Shown: positions 3,563 to 39,356, counted from the first letter of the stretch. The stretch: 64,000 nt of DNA from Patescibacteria group bacterium (GCA_028694925.1 JAQVJW010000002.1:9797-73796); one strand, 5' to 3'. Program-made: numbers and translations. Notes: generated by a model from the letters alone, not told the origin.

Positions 3563-6229
3563 ATGACAAAAGGACTTTTATTCAAAAAGTTTGTCCTACA
3601 CTTACACACTCCCGGATCAAGTGATTGGAAGGGTGGGAATAAAGCGGCTGAGGATATAGTAAAAAAAGCAATCGAGAAAGAGCTGGCTGCTATAGCAGTC
3701 ACTGATCATAACTCAGGTGATTTTGTCGATGAAATGAAAAAAGCTGCTGAGAAAACTAGTTTAGTGGTATTCCCTGGGGCTGAAATTGTTGCCACGGGCG
3801 GTAAGAAAGGCATACACTTAATTGTCATATTTGACGTCGATAAAAACTCCGCTCATGTAAAAGCTTTTTTAAATACAATTGGGATATATAAAAAAACTGC
3901 TGCCGCAGATAAAACAGTTAATGAGATAGCCCGTAAGCTAGAAGAGTTTGACCCTTCTGCAATTATCATTCTTGCCCACTGCCATTCTAGTAAAGGAGTA
4001 TCTGGCGATATGCAAGGGGAGGTTAGGGCTAACATTTTTAACCAGAAGAATGATTGTATTTTAGCTGCTGAGGCGGCTAGAAGCGACTTTGAAGCTACCG
4101 AGAAAATAGAAAAGCATACAAGAGTCATTGATCTACTCGATGGAAGTAATCCGAACTTCGGGAAGAAAAAGTTAGCCGTTATACAGGCTGCGGATTCTCA
4201 TGATCTGGACTCTGTGGGTGACAAATTTACTTATTTGAAAGTAGATGAAGTAATAACAATTGAAGATTTAAGGCAGGCCTTTATAGATAGGGAGACAAGA
4301 GTGAGGCAACCTTGGGAATATACAGAGAGTCAGTTTCCTAAAATATTGAGGGTAAAAGTTAAGAGCGGATTCCTGGATGGAGAGGAAGTTGAGTTTAATG
4401 ACGGTCTAAACAGTATTATAGGTTCAAAAGGATCTGGTAAATCATTACTAGTTGAATTACTAAGGTTTGCACTTAGCCAGGAATCACACATTAAGGCTGT
4501 TTCAGAGGATCACTTTTCTAAATTAGAGAATTGTTTAAAGTTACATGGGGTAGTAACCGTGACATTTTCAGACAAAACCGGGCATCTGTATGAATTGGAA
4601 AGGACGTATGCACCCTCAAGTGAAAGCCCGACCAGAATAACTGATTTAGAGGACGGGTCAATTAAAAGTTTTGATGTAGAGACCCTCTTCCCTATTTTAT
4701 TCCTAAGCCAAAATGAGGCTATTAGAATCGCAGAGGAGAATGGGGGTGAGAACCAAAGGAGATTTATAGATAGATTCTTCGATTTTCATAAATATCAGTC
4801 GGAGATTAAAAGGCTAAACAAAAGACTAGCTGAAATTGATACTCGCTTCGCTGATGCAATAGAATCAAAGTTTAAGTTAGGAGTTGTTCAAAAAGAGCTT
4901 GCTACATTAGAAGAAGAGGTTGCGAAACTAGATAGGCAAATGAAAAAAGATATATTCGCGGAGTATTCAGAAAAGGAGAAGATTAATATTAGCATCCGGA
5001 GTAAGTTAGATTTTTTCGACTCGTTAGAGTCGGGCCTTGAGTCAATAATAATTGATTACAGGGATATTCAAGAAAATAGTACAGCAACAGATGGGCCAGA
5101 CGATCCAATAATAAAAAGGTCAAACGAGATACTCCAGGGCACAACGAATAGTATAGTTGAGGGCTTATCGGGAATAAAAGATTTGATTGGGGCTGAAAAG
5201 AAAAAATTTAAAGCAGAGGTAGACGATTGGGATAAAAAGTTTAAGTCAATTAAAAATAGTTATCACGACGCTGTTCTAGAGGCCGGAGGTAGTCAGGTTG
5301 TCTTAAACGAACAAAGAGAAGGGGTATTGGCACGTATAAAAGAAAGGAAAAAAGAAGAGGCGTTTCTTAAGAGTAAAACCGTTTTATTGAATTCATTGGC
5401 TGATGAGCGGAAGAGTCTATTACGGGGGCTAGAAGAAACAAGAAAGGCTTATTACGATCAAAGAAAAGAGAGGTGTAAATATTTATCCGAAAAATCTTCT
5501 GGTTTGGTAAAGGTTTCGATTAAGGAGATGGAAGATAAGTCAGTATTTAAACAAAAATTACTTGCATTAAAAAAAGGTTCTTGGATTTCGGACAAGGATA
5601 TGGAAATTATGGCAGAGAAAATTAAGCCCAAAGACCTTGTTAGCTCTCTGATCAACTATGCGAATGGAACCAGAGAAAAAAGTGTTAAAAAAGTAATCTT
5701 AGCAACTGATATTGATGAAAAAACGGTTGAAAAATTATTTGACTTTTTAACAGGGAGTTTAGATGTTAGGGAGATCCTGGCTTTAATGTATGACTCTGTT
5801 CCGGAAGACGTTCCGGTTATTAAATATAAAGTGGGGACGGGGGAATACAGAGAATTAAAGGATCTTTCAACTGGGCAAAAGGCTTCTGCCTTACTGATAG
5901 TCGCTCTGACTGATGGTGACTTCCCAATTATTATCGATCAACCAGAGGATTCGCTGGATCTCGTTTCAATTTGGAATGATGTATGTGAAAACATTAGGAA
6001 AACTAAAGAGAAAAGGCAATTTATTTTTACTACACATAATTCTTCAGTCGCGGTGGCCTCTGACTCCGATAATTATATAATTTTAGAAGCTGATGCTACA
6101 ACCTGTAGAGTTGTTGTATCTGGGTCAAATAATTCTACTGAAGTTAACGATAAAATCGTAAGCTACCTTGAGGGAGGAAAGCCTACCTACGCCCTCAAGA
6201 GGAGAAAATATATCAATAAAAGAAAATAA
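3563..6229 (+). CDS. PHP-domain phosphoesterase fused to an SMC/RecF/SbcC-like ABC ATPase with a long coiled-coil insert (Ppl-like defence protein architecture)
   Basis: PHP motifs are HLHTPGSSD, AVTDHNS, AHCHSSKG and AADSHDLD. The Walker A is GSKGSGKSLL. A coiled coil of about 350 aa follows. The ABC signature is STGQKASALL, the Walker B/D-loop is IIIDQPEDSLD and the H-loop is FTTHNS. Confidence 0.75.
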   Translation: MTKGLLFKKFVLHLHTPGSSDWKGGNKAAEDIVKKAIEKELAAIAVTDHNSGDFVDEMKKAAEKTSLVVFPGAEIVATGGKKGIHLIVIFDVDKNSAHVKAFLNTIGIYKKTAAADKTVNEIARKLEEFDPSAIIILAHCHSSKGVSGDMQGEVRANIFNQKNDCILAAEAARSDFEATEKIEKHTRVIDLLDGSNPNFGKKKLAVIQAADSHDLDSVGDKFTYLKVDEVITIEDLRQAFIDRETRVRQPWEYTESQFPKILRVKVKSGFLDGEEVEFNDGLNSIIGSKGSGKSLLVELLRFALSQESHIKAVSEDHFSKLENCLKLHGVVTVTFSDKTGHLYELERTYAPSSESPTRITDLEDGSIKSFDVETLFPILFLSQNEAIRIAEENGGENQRRFIDRFFDFHKYQSEIKRLNKRLAEIDTRFADAIESKFKLGVVQKELATLEEEVAKLDRQMKKDIFAEYSEKEKINISIRSKLDFFDSLESGLESIIIDYRDIQENSTATDGPDDPIIKRSNEILQGTTNSIVEGLSGIKDLIGAEKKKFKAEVDDWDKKFKSIKNSYHDAVLEAGGSQVVLNEQREGVLARIKERKKEEAFLKSKTVLLNSLADERKSLLRGLEETRKAYYDQRKERCKYLSEKSSGLVKVSIKEMEDKSVFKQKLLALKKGSWISDKDMEIMAEKIKPKDLVSSLINYANGTREKSVKKVILATDIDEKTVEKLFDFLTGSLDVREILALMYDSVPEDVPVIKYKVGTGEYRELKDLSTGQKASALLIVALTDGDFPIIIDQPEDSLDLVSIWNDVCENIRKTKEKRQFIFTTHNSSVAVASDSDNYIILEADATTCRVVVSGSNNSTEVNDKIVSYLEGGKPTYALKRRKYINKRK

Positions 6230-19605: not shown

Positions 19606-19795
19606 GTTAGTGTGCGGTGCGGCTTGCCAAATGGAACGCAAATCAAATAAACCGTTTGTATCGGTCTATTTCTATTAATGATGCAAAAACACTAGCCTGC
19701 TAAGCACTTTTTATGTTAATATACTCACGAGAATTCAATCGGAGGGTCGCACCAGTAATGGTGTGACCCTCCTCGAATTAGTACAGGAGGATGCT

Positions 19796-20128
19796 ATGTC
19801 TACTTCTGCGAGTACAATCAGTGGGGCGTTGAACCTTCTGAATCTCAATTTGAGGTTTAGAGATGCCATCAAGCCATTGTCTCAGCACGAACTATCACGG
19901 TATCACCGCAGGGCTGTTGCCCAGCGTCTCGACAATCTTCAGGACGTCGTCCGCGAATGTTCCAAAGAAGACGTTTTGACCACAGTCATCATTCCAACGG
20001 AAGACGAGATTTGGGACTCGTTCTGGGTCAAACTGATTCGTCGGGCTATCTATCTTCTGGCGCAGTTGTTGCGTTGGAGAATGGCTCTCTCGAAGCAGTC
20101 GGGCATTGAGTGGCGAATTCCGAGTTAG
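19796..20128 (+). CDS. Hypothetical protein in a GC-rich insert
   Basis: Strong AGGAGG RBS 5 nt before the ATG. Local GC is about 52% against about 40% for the window. No recognisable domain. Confidence 0.35.
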   Translation: MSTSASTISGALNLLNLNLRFRDAIKPLSQHELSRYHRRAVAQRLDNLQDVVRECSKEDVLTTVIIPTEDEIWDSFWVKLIRRAIYLLAQLLRWRMALSKQSGIEWRIPS

Positions 20129-20158
20129 TGCGTCGCGACTACATCCAGGAGGTGCGTT

Positions 20159-20527
20159 ATGTCGGGCCCATTTGGACCTTGGTTCGAAGACAGGCCAAAG
20201 GAAGGCTGGGATGGAGTTACTGTCCATGTGTCCGAAGGCAGAATACCTCAGGTGATCGAAGCTATTGAGCGTATTGAGAGCCGTCGGGACATCCAATCCC
20301 ATCTTCGGATCGTTCACGCACTGCGAGGTGAAGAGCTTGTTGTCAGCGTAGTTGCAGGCGACCTCGCTCGGTTCTACTCTCGCGTCATCATTCCTCTGGG
20401 AACTATCGTCCCCGGTTCGATGCCGCACATGATTACGGCTCAGGTGAAATTCGAGTCGAATTCACCTTCGAGCCGTAATCACAACGACCGCCAATCAACG
20501 GAAACTTATAATTGTGAGGACCGCTGA
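20159..20527 (+). CDS. Hypothetical protein in a GC-rich insert
   Basis: AGGAGG RBS 6 nt before the ATG. It is followed by a GACCGC-TGAAAG-GCGGTC hairpin. No recognisable domain. Confidence 0.4.
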   Translation: MSGPFGPWFEDRPKEGWDGVTVHVSEGRIPQVIEAIERIESRRDIQSHLRIVHALRGEELVVSVVAGDLARFYSRVIIPLGTIVPGSMPHMITAQVKFESNSPSSRNHNDRQSTETYNCEDR

Positions 20528-20597
20528 AAGGCGGTCTTCACTTTATGAAGTTCATGCATTTCTCGCTTCGTTGAATAAGATGTACAACACCCGCCGA

Positions 20598-20620
20598 GTA
20601 TTGCGACAAAATGTCGCAAT
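20598..20620. promoter_or_regulatory. Palindromic operator-like site ATTGCGACA-aaa-TGTCGCAAT upstream of the AbiEi promoter
   Basis: Perfect 9-bp inverted repeat. It shares the core GTATTGCGACA with the operator at 39308..39356. Confidence 0.5.
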
Positions 20621-20657
20621 TTGCCCAGACTGGTAGTTGAGTATAGTGTCTTTTTAC

Positions 20658-20686
20658 TTGACAAGGGTAGCTCTATTTGCTAAAAT
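20658..20686 (+). promoter_or_regulatory. Sigma70-like promoter (TTGACA-17-TAAAAT) for abiEi-abiEii
   Basis: Consensus -35 and a near-consensus -10 lie about 40 nt upstream of the ATG at 20727. Confidence 0.45.
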
Positions 20687-20726
20687 ACTTCTAAAGAGTG
20701 TTATAAATAACATTTATTGAAAGTAT

Positions 20727-21356
20727 ATGAAGTATCTAAACCTTAAAGAAGAGCTCAGTGATTTCATCATCTTTTCACTTTTGGATATCAAAAAAATCGA
20801 ACCAAATTTTGACCGCAGACGTTTAAGCGAGTGGCAAGATAAGGGATATATTCAAAAGGTGCGAAGGGGTTATTATATTTTTTCAGATCTTGAAATAACC
20901 GACGAAGTTTTGTTTCTAATCGCTAATCGGCTATATGTTCCATCATATATTTCATTAGAGATGGCACTAAACTATTATGGACTAATTCCTGAGGGGGTCT
21001 ACAGCCTTACCTCTGTTACAACCAAGCTGCCTAAGGATTTTAAAGCTCCAATTGCAAACTTTAGTTATCGACAGGTTAAACCAGAATTATTCTTTGGGTA
21101 TCGCCTAGAAAAAGTTGGCAATCAAAATTACAAAATTGCAGAAATAGAAAAGGTGGTTCTAGATTACCTTTATCTCAATCCAGAGATGGATAATGAGGCT
21201 AATTTTTCAGAATGGCGTTTTAATTTTGATACCTTTCGGGAAAAGGCAGATATGGAGAGGTTTGCTACATATCTAAGTAATTTTAATAGTCCCAGCTTAA
21301 ATACTCGGGTTAGGAAGTTTATAAAACATATGGAGAAACATAATGTTAACAATTAG
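20727..21356 (+). CDS. abiEi: AbiEi antitoxin-family transcriptional regulator (type IV TA/Abi)
   Basis: AbiEi_4-like N-terminal wHTH. Overlaps the downstream AbiEii gene by 14 nt. Confidence 0.75.
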   Translation: MKYLNLKEELSDFIIFSLLDIKKIEPNFDRRRLSEWQDKGYIQKVRRGYYIFSDLEITDEVLFLIANRLYVPSYISLEMALNYYGLIPEGVYSLTSVTTKLPKDFKAPIANFSYRQVKPELFFGYRLEKVGNQNYKIAEIEKVVLDYLYLNPEMDNEANFSEWRFNFDTFREKADMERFATYLSNFNSPSLNTRVRKFIKHMEKHNVNN

Positions 21357-22122
21357 TCAGATAGAGGAACAATACCCCGAAAATCTAAGGCCTTTTAAGA
21401 GAGGTATTTTACGGGAGTATTTACAGTACAAGATATTAGAAATTATTTTTAACTCAAAATATGCTGGCAAGCTTTCATTTCTTGGTGGTACGGCACTCCG
21501 TATTGTATACGGTAACACCCGTTTTTCTGAAGATTTAGATTTTGACAACTTTGGACTTTCAGAAGAAGAGTTTAGCGAAATTGCTACAATAATCAAAAAG
21601 GGTCTTTCAGCTCAAGGTCTTATGGTTGAAATGAACACGATTTCTAAGGGCGCCTTCCGGTGCAATATTCGTCTTCCCGGGGTTTTCTTTGAAAACGAAC
21701 TTTCTGGACATCCGGAAGAAAAGATTTTGATTCACATAGACACCGTGTCTCATAAATTTGACTATAGACCAGATAAAAAGATTCTAAACAAATTTGATGT
21801 CTTTTCGGAAATATTTGTAACACCTCTTGATATTATTCTCTCTCAAAAGTTTTATGCAACCGTAAATCGAAAAAGAGCGAAAGGTAGAGACTTTTTTGAT
21901 ATTATGTTTTTGCAATCACGAACTAAGCCTAATTATGACTATCTAAAAGAGAAAATAGGGATAACAAACAGCAAAGAATTAAAGGCCTTGCTAGCAGTTG
22001 AATTTAAAGATTTAAATTTCAAAGAATTGGGCCGAGATGTTCAGCCCTTTTTGTTTAATCCAACCGACGCCAAGAGGGTTGAAAAGTTTAAAGAATTTAT
22101 CGAAGAAGCCGATTTGGGTTAA
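21343..22122 (+). CDS. abiEii: AbiEii/AbiGii nucleotidyltransferase toxin (DUF1814)
   Basis: FLGGTALRIVYGNTRFSEDLDFDN, a Pol-beta-type NTase motif typical of AbiEii. Confidence 0.85.
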   Translation: MLTISQIEEQYPENLRPFKRGILREYLQYKILEIIFNSKYAGKLSFLGGTALRIVYGNTRFSEDLDFDNFGLSEEEFSEIATIIKKGLSAQGLMVEMNTISKGAFRCNIRLPGVFFENELSGHPEEKILIHIDTVSHKFDYRPDKKILNKFDVFSEIFVTPLDIILSQKFYATVNRKRAKGRDFFDIMFLQSRTKPNYDYLKEKIGITNSKELKALLAVEFKDLNFKELGRDVQPFLFNPTDAKRVEKFKEFIEEADLG

Positions 22123-22204: not shown

Positions 22205-22618
22205 ATGAAAGCAAAATTGACAAAACAACAGATAGACGAACTATGGGGTCAAGATGGCCCTTATTCTGAGGTTAGGTTAGTGATTGAAAAAAGAATCTTA
22301 GACGATCAAATTAGTCGAGAATTTTTGGTAGTAGAAACTAATATCAATCCTTTTACTTTTAAGTTTATTAAAAAGAATCGTAAACTCTTTAAAGATAGCG
22401 AGATGATTCAACAACTACTTAACAACTCAGAGTATCGGGGTCCAGCTTTTGGCTACGTTAGCAATGCTTTTTGTGGTCATTATACAGGGGAAGATGTCAT
22501 GGAAAAGGCAGAAAAGGCAGCCGCTAGGTCATCCAAGCTAATAATCGAATTACATAAGTTTGTGATGGATTCGCTTGGTATAGATAAGAAAGATATTTAC
22601 CGAAAATATATGAGCTGA
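22205..22618 (+). CDS. Hypothetical protein
   Basis: 137-aa ORF with a plausible RBS and no motif. Confidence 0.35.
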   Translation: MKAKLTKQQIDELWGQDGPYSEVRLVIEKRILDDQISREFLVVETNINPFTFKFIKKNRKLFKDSEMIQQLLNNSEYRGPAFGYVSNAFCGHYTGEDVMEKAEKAAARSSKLIIELHKFVMDSLGIDKKDIYRKYMS

Positions 22619-37518: not shown

Positions 37519-38307
37519 TTAGGTAATGAGTGGCTTTTCCCATCCAAAACAAGTTTCAGTATTTTTTAAGGCCTTGAAGGCAATCGCAGATGAAGGGTCT
37601 GCTTTCCTAAAATCAATAAGAAGCTCGACGCAACTACTAATAAATTCACCAACCGTTCCGTTAGAATCGTCAACGCCACCATGACTAAGTTTTCTATCAA
37701 GCTTTAGCAAGGTGTCTAGGACGAGTTTTGCTGATGACTTACTGGCCGGTAGCTGGGAGAATAATGCCGAAAGCCTATTGCATCCTTCCTCTAAAGAATT
37801 TTGATACTGAAACCAAATCTTTGACGGGCCGTTATATGTTTTGATATAACGGCTCGCTTCTGTAATTTTCTTTTTTAATTCTGCGATTTTGTTCGGGTCA
37901 ATTTCACCAACTAGACCCGAAAATGACAGGTTATTGTGCTGTTTTTTATCTTCTTTAGAGAGTTTTTTACCATCCATAACTGCCCATATAGCAACAGCAA
38001 CCACATGCTTACAAAGATAATCCTTTTGACCTAAGTAGCAGTTACAATCGGCATAGTTGAAATCCTTCATCGACACAAAAACATCATAGATGGTAGTACC
38101 TGCTACCTTTGCAGAAAATCCCTTAAAGACCTTATGAAATTCCTTGATTTTTCTAGACTCATAGATACCAACTGCCCGTTGGAAGGTTTTTTCATCAGTC
38201 GAAAACTTTATTTTATCTAAATCAAAATAGGGCCTGATATTTTCGAAATTAGATGGCATAATTTTCTCTAGCATATTTTGCCTGGGAGATAAATACATCT
38301 TTTGCAT
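37519..38307 (-). CDS. SWIM zinc-finger domain protein
   Basis: CNCYLGQKDYLCKHVVAV matches the SWIM pattern CxCxnCxH. Overlaps the upstream Fic gene. Confidence 0.6.
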   Translation of the reverse strand: MQKMYLSPRQNMLEKIMPSNFENIRPYFDLDKIKFSTDEKTFQRAVGIYESRKIKEFHKVFKGFSAKVAGTTIYDVFVSMKDFNYADCNCYLGQKDYLCKHVVAVAIWAVMDGKKLSKEDKKQHNNLSFSGLVGEIDPNKIAELKKKITEASRYIKTYNGPSKIWFQYQNSLEEGCNRLSALFSQLPASKSSAKLVLDTLLKLDRKLSHGGVDDSNGTVGEFISSCVELLIDFRKADPSSAIAFKALKNTETCFGWEKPLIT

Positions 38308-39292
38308 TACCGAGTGCTCCTAGCTCATAATAGGCGAGGATTGCCAGCTTATATGTATTTACATCTACTGCCCTTAATGAGAGCGGGAATGAATGGTTAG
38401 CATTCAGTATTGCGTTCGCAAGAATTCTAGCAGTCCTTTTGTTACCATCATTAAAAGGCTGGAGGTAACATATATATACGAATGATATTAAGGCCCTTTC
38501 AAAGACATCTTTTTTTGAATTAATAACTTCGCAAAACCTTTCTATCTCCTCATTAATTTGATGCTTGTTATCAAGGGGTCGATATGCACTACCCGTGATG
38601 CCCACTAATCTCTCCCTTATTCCTGAATCAATAAGGTTTTCCGCTAAAATTTTATGAAGCTCTAGTATTAGCGACTTTGAAATCTTCCCCGCGAATAAGT
38701 CCTTGTTTTCTTCCGAAAATTCTAGTGCCTTCTTGTGATTTAAAATCATCTGGGTTTCGTCTTTAGTACGTCCGGGTGCCACAAGCCCTTCTTTTAATAA
38801 GGATTCGGTCTCTAAAAGAGTATAGGTGTTCCCTTCGATTTGGGAAGACTTCCATGAAAGCTCGATTGTGATTCTTTCACGTTCTCTTTTGAGGATATCT
38901 TTAGGAGCGCTCTGATACTTTGATTTGTAGATATTATTGTTTTTAATAAGATTCTTTTTCTCATTATTTGTGAAAAGATTATTTTCCTTTAACAAATCAA
39001 GCCTTTTAAAGTCGTAATTAATTCTTCCACGGTTCTCATTTTCAAAAAATTTCTGGAGTGTATTCTTTGAAAATTTTAACCCCAGGATACCTAATGGAGT
39101 TGGTTTATACTTAACAGCTCTTGCTTTTCCAGACTTTTCAACCAAGCCAAGCATAATAAGTTCATTTAAGTCTCTTTGCAGGGTTCTGGCTGTGAGTGAA
39201 TTAAACTCTGGTAACTCAAGAAAATCAGGTAGATTATCTACCCCAAACATTAACTGACCCATAATATTGTACTGCCTGTTTGATATTTCCAT
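38249..39292 (-). CDS. Fic-family protein with an N-terminal wHTH and a degenerate active-site motif (QPFNDGNKRTAR)
   Basis: Fic core with inhibitory motif SSQIEGN. The catalytic His and the second Gly of the motif are replaced (Q...K). Confidence 0.75.
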   Translation of the reverse strand: MEISNRQYNIMGQLMFGVDNLPDFLELPEFNSLTARTLQRDLNELIMLGLVEKSGKARAVKYKPTPLGILGLKFSKNTLQKFFENENRGRINYDFKRLDLLKENNLFTNNEKKNLIKNNNIYKSKYQSAPKDILKRERERITIELSWKSSQIEGNTYTLLETESLLKEGLVAPGRTKDETQMILNHKKALEFSEENKDLFAGKISKSLILELHKILAENLIDSGIRERLVGITGSAYRPLDNKHQINEEIERFCEVINSKKDVFERALISFVYICYLQPFNDGNKRTARILANAILNANHSFPLSLRAVDVNTYKLAILAYYELGALGNAKDVFISQAKYARENYAI

Positions 39293-39307
39293 ACTTTAAA
39301 TATATAG

Positions 39308-39356
39308 AGTATTGCGACATTTGTAAAGAGTATTGCGACATTATGTCGCAATACTC
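39308..39356. promoter_or_regulatory. Operator: 29-bp perfect palindrome GAGTATTGCGACAT-T-ATGTCGCAATACTC plus an upstream direct half-site, overlapping a TTTACA-17-TATATT promoter for the minus-strand Fic/SWIM operon
   Basis: Read directly. The -10 ends about 6 nt before the ATG at 39292 (minus strand), giving a leaderless transcript. Confidence 0.55.

Follow-up and report, generated by a model that had tools for sequence, protein, structure and literature searches.

Which protein reads a palindrome that stands upstream of two unrelated modules, and are both modules under its control? This question is raised by a 64,000-nucleotide (64-kb) stretch of DNA from a Patescibacteria group bacterium, here called the window. 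One copy of the palindrome (site 1) lies upstream of an abiE cassette, the other (site 2) upstream of the genes for a wHTH-Fic(Q) protein (Fic(Q) below) and a SWIM zinc-finger protein. The genomes of Patescibacteria (CPR) are tiny and encode few transcription factors, and to our knowledge next to nothing is known of how these organisms regulate their genes. The initial annotation of the window proposed that a single regulator, either AbiEi or the N-terminal wHTH of the Fic protein, controls two toxin modules through the palindrome.

The palindrome at the two loci

The identity of the two sites is seen directly in the DNA. Within 64 kb, GAGTATTGCGACA occurs four times and is confined to the loci of site 1 and site 2 (Table 1). 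A search for GTATTGCGACA with up to one mismatch returned four matches in the window, every one of them exact (20598+, 39309+, 39330+ and 39344-), against an expected count of 0.5; none of 100 shuffles reached four. The 8-mer TTGCGACA was found five times, exclusively at both palindrome loci, and two of the three perfect 9-3-9 palindromes of any sequence in the 64 kb belong to site 1 and site 2. The common palindromic core claimed by the initial annotation is thus real, and a motif scan of the 64 kb placed it at two loci only. The similarity between the sites is restricted to about 25 nt. Two loci with about 25 nt in common did not indicate a dispersed repeat, an IS or a MITE end within the 64 kb. 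Rfam searches in gathering and E-value modes returned nothing at site 1, at site 2 or in the non-coding stretch at 19.6-20.5 kb. The evidence supports the view that one operator is present twice, and recognition of both copies by a single regulator would be expected.

Table 1. Coordinates of the features of the window that are discussed in the text.
Feature	Position	Strand	Description
Junction element X	19622..19711	+	76% identical to the segment just 5' of the L124 Fic(Q)-like gene
Site 1	20596..20620	.	GAGTATTGCGACA-AAA-TGTCGCAAT; lone palindrome, orphan counterpart of the distal Fic(Q) palindrome
AbiE cassette	20651..22122	+	Promoter, AbiEi operator, abiEi and abiEii; limits set by alignable DNA in five other abiE loci
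Predicted abiE promoter	20658..20686	+	TTGACA-17-TAAAAT, 11/12 matches, TG before the -10
Putative AbiEi operator	20685..20726	+	Inverted repeat ATACTTCTAAAGAGTGTTAT / ATAACATTTATTGAAAGTAT, 20-nt arms, 2-nt gap, from the -10 to the start codon
abiEi	20727..21356	+	Type IV antitoxin / transcriptional regulator, 209 aa; PADLOC AbiEi 1.5e-63; NF047376 weak
abiEii	21343..22122	+	Nucleotidyltransferase toxin, 259 aa; PF08843 1.4e-18; PADLOC AbiEii 2.4e-98; 14-nt overlap with abiEi
orf137	22205..22618	+	69% identical to the gene after the L124 Fic(Q)-like gene (orf132); downstream edge of the slot
SWIM zinc-finger gene	37519..38307	-	262 aa; PF04434; PADLOC PDC-S62 2.6e-16; overlaps the 3' end of the Fic(Q) gene
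wHTH-Fic(Q) gene	38249..39292	-	347 aa; N-terminal wHTH and class-II-like Fic fold
Predicted Fic(Q) promoter	39299..39327	-	TTTACA-17-TATATT
Site 2, overall	39307-39356		29-bp palindrome and third half-site
Site 2, proximal half-site	39307..39320	-	TGTCGCAATACTC on the gene strand, direct copy of an arm, inside the promoter spacer
Site 2, distal operator	39328..39356	.	Perfect 14+1+14 palindrome GAGTATTGCGACAT-T-ATGTCGCAATACTC, abuts the Fic(Q) -35

At site 1, the core ATTGCGACA-AAA-TGTCGCAAT (20600-20620) is a perfect 9+3+9 palindrome; the left arm is longer than this and reads GAGTATTGCGACA, starting at 20596. Site 1 ends 37 nt upstream of the abiEi -35 element, close to the 40 nt or so estimated initially. 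Site 2 also has the architecture described at the outset, a perfect 29-bp palindrome with a direct half-site, overlapping the promoter of the Fic/SWIM operon. The half-site begins 21 nt past the neighbouring arm, and a spacing of 21-22 nt is seen in 16 homologous loci. Between the predicted -10 element and the ATG of Fic(Q) there are only 6 nt, and the homologues are arranged likewise; with so short a gap, the Fic(Q) mRNA is probably leaderless.

The boundaries of the AbiE cassette are likewise observed directly. DNA homology to other abiE loci runs from about 20651-20677 to the abiEii stop codon; against L124, blastn aligned window positions 20651-22121, and in the remaining four loci the homology begins slightly further in. 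The cassette has the features of a type IV toxin-antitoxin system, a bicistronic pair of AbiEi (COG5340-type wHTH antitoxin) and AbiEii (DUF1814 nucleotidyltransferase) with paired long inverted repeats over the promoter and transcription start. AbiEi of the window is 100% identical to a protein from a Patescibacteria MAG. The abiE comparison comprised the window and seven other loci; their AbiEi proteins share 64-74% identity with the one in the window. Upstream of abiE, these regions align from the -35 onward only. The promoter is conserved in the homologous loci, as is the inverted repeat between the -10 and the ATG, with its TTCTAAAGA.T element kept in L127, L130, L253 and L126.

As wHTH proteins, AbiEi antitoxins bind inverted repeats and repress their own transcription; in S. 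agalactiae, the AbiEi operator consists of the 23-bp repeats IR1 and IR2, which are 3 bp apart and extend over the transcription start (PMC7319586). The window's repeat at 20685-20726 has a matching layout and is likely AbiEi's own operator. The shared TTGCGACA palindrome is distinct from this repeat. It is a second element that stands further upstream, beyond the cassette.

The candidate readers of the operator

AbiEi and Fic(Q) were the two readers proposed. If AbiEi bound the palindrome, it would cross-repress the Fic(Q) operon. Its nature as a wHTH autorepressor on inverted repeats (PMC7319586) fits such a role, and the palindrome is near abiE in two loci. A further copy lies 268 nt 5' of a DUF6088/AbiEi_3_N-AbiEii pair in L111, a single case near a contig end that carries little weight. 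Against this role, the AbiEi recognition helix FDRRRL.EWQ.KGYI is near-identical at abiE loci with the TGCGACA-type palindrome, with the CCCGACA-type and with none, and a different, conserved inverted repeat occupies the known position of the AbiEi operator. Moreover, in the clade that has the operator, the flanks of all 17 Fic(Q) genome loci lacked an AbiE pair. Recognition by AbiEi is the least probable of all explanations considered, with a chance close to nil, and AbiEi can be dropped as a candidate reader. Site 1 as an AbiEi operator was also considered and rejected; it is absent from six of the eight abiE loci despite near-identical AbiEi helices. The AbiEi relatives encoded in viral contigs were too distant for use.

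The N-terminal domain of Fic(Q) remains the focus. An AF2 model of the protein (pLDDT 83.8) predicts helices at residues 5-15, 21-25 and 35-47 and strands at 51-54 and 61-64, which make up a wHTH, followed by the Fic fold. The recognition helix is located at about residues 35-47 (ARTLQRDLNELIM). For comparison, 44 genome loci encoding Fic(Q) homologues were retrieved. In 17 Patescibacteria loci with homologues of 56-68% identity, GTATCCCGACA-nnn-TGTCGGGATAC or a close variant stands immediately 5' of the gene. Almost all 17 have the half-site TGTCGGGAT 21-22 nt beyond the adjoining arm, followed by the -10 and the ATG. The layout of palindrome and half-site is kept in about 30 loci of Fic(Q) homologues from different lineages.

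Sequence variation in the operator follows variation in the protein. The subclade of the window comprises three loci: the window itself, P0003 (78% identical; represented by L046-48) and P0005 (73% identical). Their recognition helix reads T[AV]RTLQ instead of TERTLQ, and the proximal half-site is TG[TA]CGCAAT (TGTCGCAAT in the window and in P0003, TGACGCAAT in P0005). The other clade, with 17 loci, has the helix [TNS]ERT[LI]Q and the proximal half-site TGTCGGGAT. The correlation of E35 with GGG and of A35 or V35 with GCA is perfect (17 loci versus 3), and it counts as one evolutionary event because it is confined to a single clade. Distant homologues, from Bdellovibrio-like and other MAGs, have other recognition helices and wholly different palindromes, with the layout unchanged. 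The palindromes include ATCGTATCA-ttt-TGATACGAT, ATGTAACaaaaTGTTAT and ATCGTCTCA-tta-TGAGACGAT. The helix S.[IV]T[LV]KRDL goes with ATCGTATCA-nnn-TGATACGAT, SFMTVNRDL with ATGTAAC..GTTAT, and SK.TVARD with ATCGTCTCA-nnn-TGAGACGAT. An operator that moves with its gene and shifts with the recognition helix is the expected signature of an autoregulator. The layout 5' of nearly all homologues and its co-variation with the recognition helix make the N-terminal wHTH of Fic(Q) the likely reader of the palindrome. Of the original proposal of one regulator for both sites, the shared operator and the single expected reader stand; AbiEi as this reader does not.

The arrangement of site 2 suggests how such a regulator may act. 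A Fic(Q) dimer would bind the 29-bp palindrome next to its own -35. A further subunit would occupy the half-site 21 bp downstream, two helical turns away on the same face of the DNA and within the -35/-10 spacer. Bound Fic(Q) would occlude RNA polymerase and thereby cause negative autoregulation. From this architecture we infer that Fic(Q) is likely an autorepressor at site 2.

The bare 21-bp core is less specific than the operator. Among 73 loci listed in a metagenome scan for ATTGCGACANNNTGTCGCAAT, tblastn placed none beside a relative of the Fic or AbiE proteins of the window; about half of these 73 represent one gut sequence family with the palindrome within a large ORF. In metagenomes, the core was also seen 24 nt 5' of TetR genes (L090), overlapping the start of another TetR gene (L052), and within TGTCGnnAT half-site arrays in phage-like DNA. 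Viral contigs contain the CCCGACA core: in more than 120 T4-like phage contigs, ATCCCGACA-nnn-TGTCGGGAT is followed by a T-run and resembles a terminator. The CPR-specific extended form (GTAT...ATAC) had no match in the viral contigs. In view of these varied metagenome and phage contexts, the bare core is not diagnostic, and identification rests on the context, the third half-site and the GTAT/ATAC extensions. Occurrences of the core at TetR genes and in phage-like half-site arrays, outside the Fic(Q) family, could also mean that a third, unlinked regulator, neither Fic(Q) nor AbiEi, reads both sites. However, the operator is tied to Fic(Q) across about 30 loci and shifts with its helix, and no other neighbour is conserved. 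A regulator of this kind is highly improbable.

The Fic domain of the candidate reader departs from the enzymatically active type. Pfam PF02661 (6.4e-15) and the PADLOC SoFic model (5.6e-20) matched the protein, and Foldseek found Fic-1 and FICD as the best PDB matches of the AF2 model (probability 1.00, TM about 0.57). The core motif QPFNDGNKRTAR contains a degenerate QPFNDGNKR, in which Q278 replaces the catalytic histidine. In phmmer alignments with human FICD (2e-12) and C. elegans Fic-1, the glutamine falls on the catalytic histidine of HPFxDGNGR. The motif S149-S-Q-I-E153-G154-N (SSQIEGN) aligns with TVAIEGN of FICD and its inhibitory glutamate. Across 18 aligned homologues, Q278 is invariant, as are RTLQR in the N-terminal part and SSxxEGN, and the core reads [LI]QPFNDGNKRT[AG]R. 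Fic(Q) therefore has the Fic fold and the inhibitory helix (S/T)xxxE(G/N) of class II, but lacks the active site HxFx(D/E)GNGRxxR with its catalytic histidine. As in HTH-Fic proteins, Fic and HTH are joined on one polypeptide and a palindromic operator lies in the gene's own promoter.

Without the catalytic histidine, the label 'toxin' is doubtful for Fic(Q), and its sequence argues against canonical AMPylation catalysis. With the fold and the inhibitory helix kept and glutamine in place of histidine, the Fic domain more probably senses a ligand or a partner than acts as an AMPylating toxin. The SWIM gene is probably co-transcribed with Fic(Q) in the window. It was absent from the 44 loci of Fic(Q) homologues, and no other partner is conserved there. 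A conserved defence context was sought among the neighbours of Fic(Q) in 17 loci; these neighbours were heterogeneous and none was conserved. The notion of two toxin modules is not upheld, given glutamine for the catalytic histidine in 18 of 18 aligned homologues and a SWIM partner that is not conserved.

The family is large, with more than 7000 homologues at E<1e-10. The closest 120 of these have about 347 aa and are 57-78% identical, and the named ones among the 120 belong to the Patescibacteria (Saccharimonadia, Berkelbacteria and CPR2). A protein collection carries the same Fic(Q) gene as a 337-aa call.

The lone palindrome beside abiE

Synteny suggests an explanation for site 1. Junction element X and orf137 match the two flanks of the Fic(Q)-like gene in L124, so the AbiE cassette occupies the slot of a Fic(Q)-like gene. 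The order in the window is X, an 830-nt GC-rich insert, the palindrome, the AbiE cassette and orf137. The order in L124 is AbiE cassette, X, operator, Fic(Q)-like gene and orf132. The palindrome of the window stands where the operator of an L124-type Fic(Q)-like gene would be. Element X starts with a tRNA-3'-end-like sequence (..GCCAAATGGAACG), and the same sequence follows tRNA-Asp 5' of Fic(Q) in L046 and L049. Fic(Q) is located directly 3' of a tRNA gene in 8 of 20 Fic(Q) loci scanned. Its neighbours vary, and one variant of the same locus includes a recombinase. In L012, the entire 47-nt operator is directly repeated and flanks the Fic(Q) gene on both sides. Together, these features are typical of a variable island region that recombines.

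Site 1 may thus be an orphan, a legacy Fic(Q) operator at a cassette-exchange junction, and we give this explanation an even chance. A cassette exchange in the tRNA-associated variable region would have stranded the Fic(Q) palindrome beside abiE. Site 1 shares 9 nt of both arms, and 13 nt of one of them, with the operator of the resident Fic(Q), whose dimer should therefore still recognise it; Fic(Q) is probably bound at site 1. The site is an unlikely main controller of abiE because its centre is near -83 relative to the inferred abiE start (assumed 7 nt past the -10). It stands 30 nt beyond the 5' edge of the AbiE cassette, a self-contained unit with its own predicted promoter and its own likely AbiEi operator.

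Two observations speak against a legacy operator. The arms of site 1 are perfect and undecayed, and no proximal half-site or Fic coding remnant was detected alongside. The sequence beside site 1 was searched for relics of a third half-site and of a Fic gene, with no convincing result: GAGTATAGTGTCT matches at 9 of 13 positions in the wrong arrangement, and there was no tblastn match. The other observation is an independent abiE locus that also carries a lone perfect palindrome, in another variant. In L127-129 (one locus on three contigs; AbiEi 70% identical), GTATCCCGACA-ttt-TGTCGGGATAC lies 13 nt 5' of the -35 with its centre at about -58. It contains CCCGACA, the operator variant of the major Fic(Q) clade. 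Neutral history alone does not readily account for two such junctions of abiE and palindrome; they may be a sign of selection or of a targeted process.

Selection is the core of the alternative in which site 1 is a regulatory input for abiE: bound there, Fic(Q) would act as an activator, a repressor or an insulator against read-through. The signal perceived by the pseudo-Fic domain would thereby feed into AbiE expression. The arms of site 1 are exactly the rare subclade variant of the resident Fic(Q) operator, and the L127-129 palindrome, of the major-clade variant, stands just 5' of the abiE -35. Both arms differ symmetrically between the window and L127-129, which indicates that palindromy has been maintained. 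Genes of the Fic(Q)-like and AbiE types frequently adjoin each other (L124/125, L253 and L025), and shared regulators of defence genes have a precedent in the WYL/BrxR family (PMC9122601). However, the centres of the two palindromes are 25 bp apart (-83 and -58) and therefore out of helical phase, and neither palindrome overlaps core promoter elements. The palindrome is present at only two of the eight abiE loci, the window and L127-129. A Fic-type palindrome was sought at the other six and none was found, including L124/125 and L253, where a Fic(Q)-like gene with a different operator of its own is one to two genes away; at L025, L124 and L253, which have both gene types side by side, the locus-specific Fic operator was likewise not found 5' of abiE. 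Site 1 also lies beyond the conserved cassette, and autoregulation is already supplied by AbiEi. Selected cross-control appears possible, with a chance well short of even; it is kept alive mainly by the perfect palindromy and different variant of L127. We favour the legacy operator over it.

The palindrome could instead be structural, as a terminator or insulator hairpin, or as a cruciform or recombination hotspot for cassette exchange. The RNA hairpin energies are -10.8 kcal/mol for site 1, -19.7 for site 2 and -20.1 for L127. A T-run follows the related hairpin in the T4-like phage contigs described above, and the L127 palindrome is located 22 nt past the stop codon of the upstream gene. Both abiE-linked copies are at cassette junctions, and the repeated operator around Fic(Q) in L012 also fits recombination. 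Yet no T-run follows site 1 (the next bases are TTGCCC) or the L127 copy. A plus-strand scan for intrinsic terminators did not call site 1, and a separate terminator-like hairpin at 20517-20544 already ends the upstream unit. The Fic(Q) palindrome stands 5' of the -35 and is accompanied by the non-palindromic third half-site in the spacer, which makes sense for protein binding alone. The co-variation of the palindrome with the recognition helix also opposes a structural role, which we regard as improbable.

Relation to known regulators and significance

The CccR protein of Yersinia pseudotuberculosis is a toxin with Fic and HTH domains and an autorepressor that acts via palindromes in its own promoter; it has a C-terminal HTH and the catalytic H192, AMPylates FtsZ and is T6SS-secreted, and its operator halves lie far apart (PMC9755527). 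Fic(Q) resembles CccR in the union of a Fic fold and an HTH in one polypeptide and in the palindromes of its own promoter. The CccR dimer represses itself and also affects other genes. In contrast to CccR, the wHTH of Fic(Q) is N-terminal, and the catalytic histidine is glutamine in all aligned homologues. The Fic(Q) operator is compact and combines a palindrome with a third half-site located in the spacer. The family has its centre in the Patescibacteria. Fic(Q) is predicted to work like a CccR-type HTH-Fic autorepressor with reversed domain order, a missing histidine and a compact three-part operator.

The best sequence and fold matches of Fic(Q) are class II Fic proteins (FICD/HYPE, C. elegans Fic-1 and SoFic SO_4266). 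They share the (S/T)xxxE(G/N) inhibitory helix and the core xPFxDGNxRxxR with Fic(Q), in which histidine is changed to glutamine and GNG to GNK. Fic(Q) has an N-terminal wHTH where FICD has TPR repeats and SoFic a C-terminal wHTH. A literature search found no paper that links the Fic family to Patescibacteria.

The AbiE cassette resembles characterised toxin-antitoxin systems (S. agalactiae AbiEi and M. tuberculosis Rv2827c) in its bicistronic overlapping pair and in the long inverted repeats over the -10 and start. For characterised AbiE systems, no description of an extra site for a foreign regulator 5' of abiE was found in the literature examined. The WYL-domain regulators of the BrxR/CapW type (PMC9122601) may follow the same logic as Fic(Q): an autorepressor made of HTH and sensor acts on palindromic operators and is found in variable regions near defence genes. 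Unlike in BrxR/CapW, the sensor of Fic(Q) would be a pseudo-Fic domain rather than WYL, no defence neighbour is conserved, and a regulon larger than its own promoter would be hypothetical.

A more far-reaching reading is unlikely. Fic(Q) would be a trans-acting sensor-regulator spread over the Patescibacteria, its dead Fic domain would sense a nucleotide or phage cue, and its operators would mark cargo slots in tRNA islands, with orphan palindromes wiring abiE-like cassettes into the regulon. If true, this would be a modular 'plug-in promoter-control' for defence genes in regulator-poor organisms.

The orphan operator beside abiE may reflect either defence cassettes wired to a shared regulator or operators stranded by cassette swaps. 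The shared operator and a single reader are supported, and cross-control of abiE is the weaker, possible reading. What appeared as a 'Fic toxin' is re-labelled as a probable pseudo-enzyme regulator. The analysis links an HTH protein that is among the most widespread and conserved of Patescibacteria to a three-site operator and to likely autorepression, and provides a testable protein-DNA pair.

Junction elements and putative integrative context

The junction element at window positions 19622-19711 is conserved at 4498-4587 of L124 and, in L046 and L049, upstream of the gene for Fic(Q), the 347-aa wHTH-Fic protein. The element starts with a tRNA-3'-end-like ..GCCAAATG[GAT]AAC. A tRNA gene lies directly upstream of Fic(Q) in 8 of the 20 loci scanned. 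In L047, a serine recombinase sits in the gap between tRNA and Fic(Q). Together, the tRNA-like element, the tRNA neighbours and the recombinase suggest that integrative islands carry Fic(Q) as their first cargo gene. In L012, the complete 47-nt operator, palindrome plus half-site, flanks the Fic(Q) gene on both sides as a direct repeat (3940-3986 and 5046-5094). The second copy adjoins a region with an opposite-strand reverse transcriptase (YVDD motif, 5514-6038), which is possibly a diversity-generating retroelement.

In the window, an 830-nt stretch (19712-20545) lies between rplY (L25) and the lone palindrome upstream of the abiE cassette (20596-20620). Its GC content is 0.51-0.56, compared with ~0.40 in the surrounding genome. 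Its ORFs had no match in Pfam, NCBIfam or PADLOC, and an Rfam search of the stretch yielded no match. The plus-strand RNA fold has a z-score of -5.7 (20 shuffles), and the stretch includes long perfect hairpins and a terminator-like hairpin. A large structured RNA is one possible identity for the stretch; another is foreign DNA inserted between junction element and palindrome.

Palindromes and half-sites beyond Fic(Q)

A ATTGCGACA-nnn-TGTCGCAAT palindrome, the type upstream of the abiE cassette in the window, was found in the metagenome contig L111 (GC 0.36) at 2139-2159, 268 nt upstream of an unrelated DUF6088/AbiEi_3_N-AbiEii pair. The palindrome is near the contig end, so the gene owning it lies beyond view. 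In L127, a canonical Fic gene (HPFLDGNGR, C-terminal wHTH; 1819-2877) is located directly upstream of a lone CCCGACA palindrome and an abiE cassette. This contig looks like a plasmid or ICE, given its Replic_Relax and DUF3768 genes.

In three low-GC metagenome contigs (L054, L070, L099), half-sites of both types, ATCCCGACA and ATTGCGACA, are arrayed in tandem and separated by 3-nt spacers. The L054 array follows a sequence that resembles a tRNA 3' end by eye; ARAGORN called no tRNA in this contig. Such an arrangement resembles clustered binding sites placed at an integration junction.

The motif ATCCCGACA-nnn-TGTCGGGAT, with a T-run after it, occurs in more than 120 T4-like phage contigs (IMG/VR; GC ~0.33; L133-L212). 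This palindrome is located upstream of a gp25-like baseplate gene, beside TATAAATA-like late promoters. Flanking half-sites TGTCG[YC][GA]AT, among them the TGTCGCAAT variant, have a 12-nt periodicity. These clusters point to the use of the same half-site by either a DNA-binding protein of the phage or some repeat system.

Coordinates of half-site features and hairpins
Feature	Position	Context
Half-site array	L054 940-1035	
Half-site array	L070 1380-1470	
Half-site array	L099 1125-1210	
Phage ATCCCGACA-nnn-TGTCGGGAT palindrome, example	L146 3458-3478	
Long perfect hairpin	near 19741-19772	within GC-rich stretch
Long perfect hairpin	near 20437-20490	within GC-rich stretch
Terminator-like hairpin	20517-20544	within GC-rich stretch

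The Fic(Q) family and its neighbours

The SWIM-domain gene of the window (37519-38307) overlaps the 3' end of Fic(Q) by 59 nt. Over its N-terminal 100 residues, the gene product has a match (2.6e-16) to PDC-S62, a candidate defence family in PADLOC. Among the loci examined, this pairing occurs only in the window genome, and gene neighbours are heterogeneous across the Patescibacteria 347-aa Fic genes. The catalytic histidine is replaced by glutamine (QPFNDGNKR) throughout this family, comprising the window protein (38249-39292) and its closest homologues P0001-P0120. The inhibitory-helix motif is retained despite this replacement. The family members look like pseudo-enzymes that serve as transcription factors.
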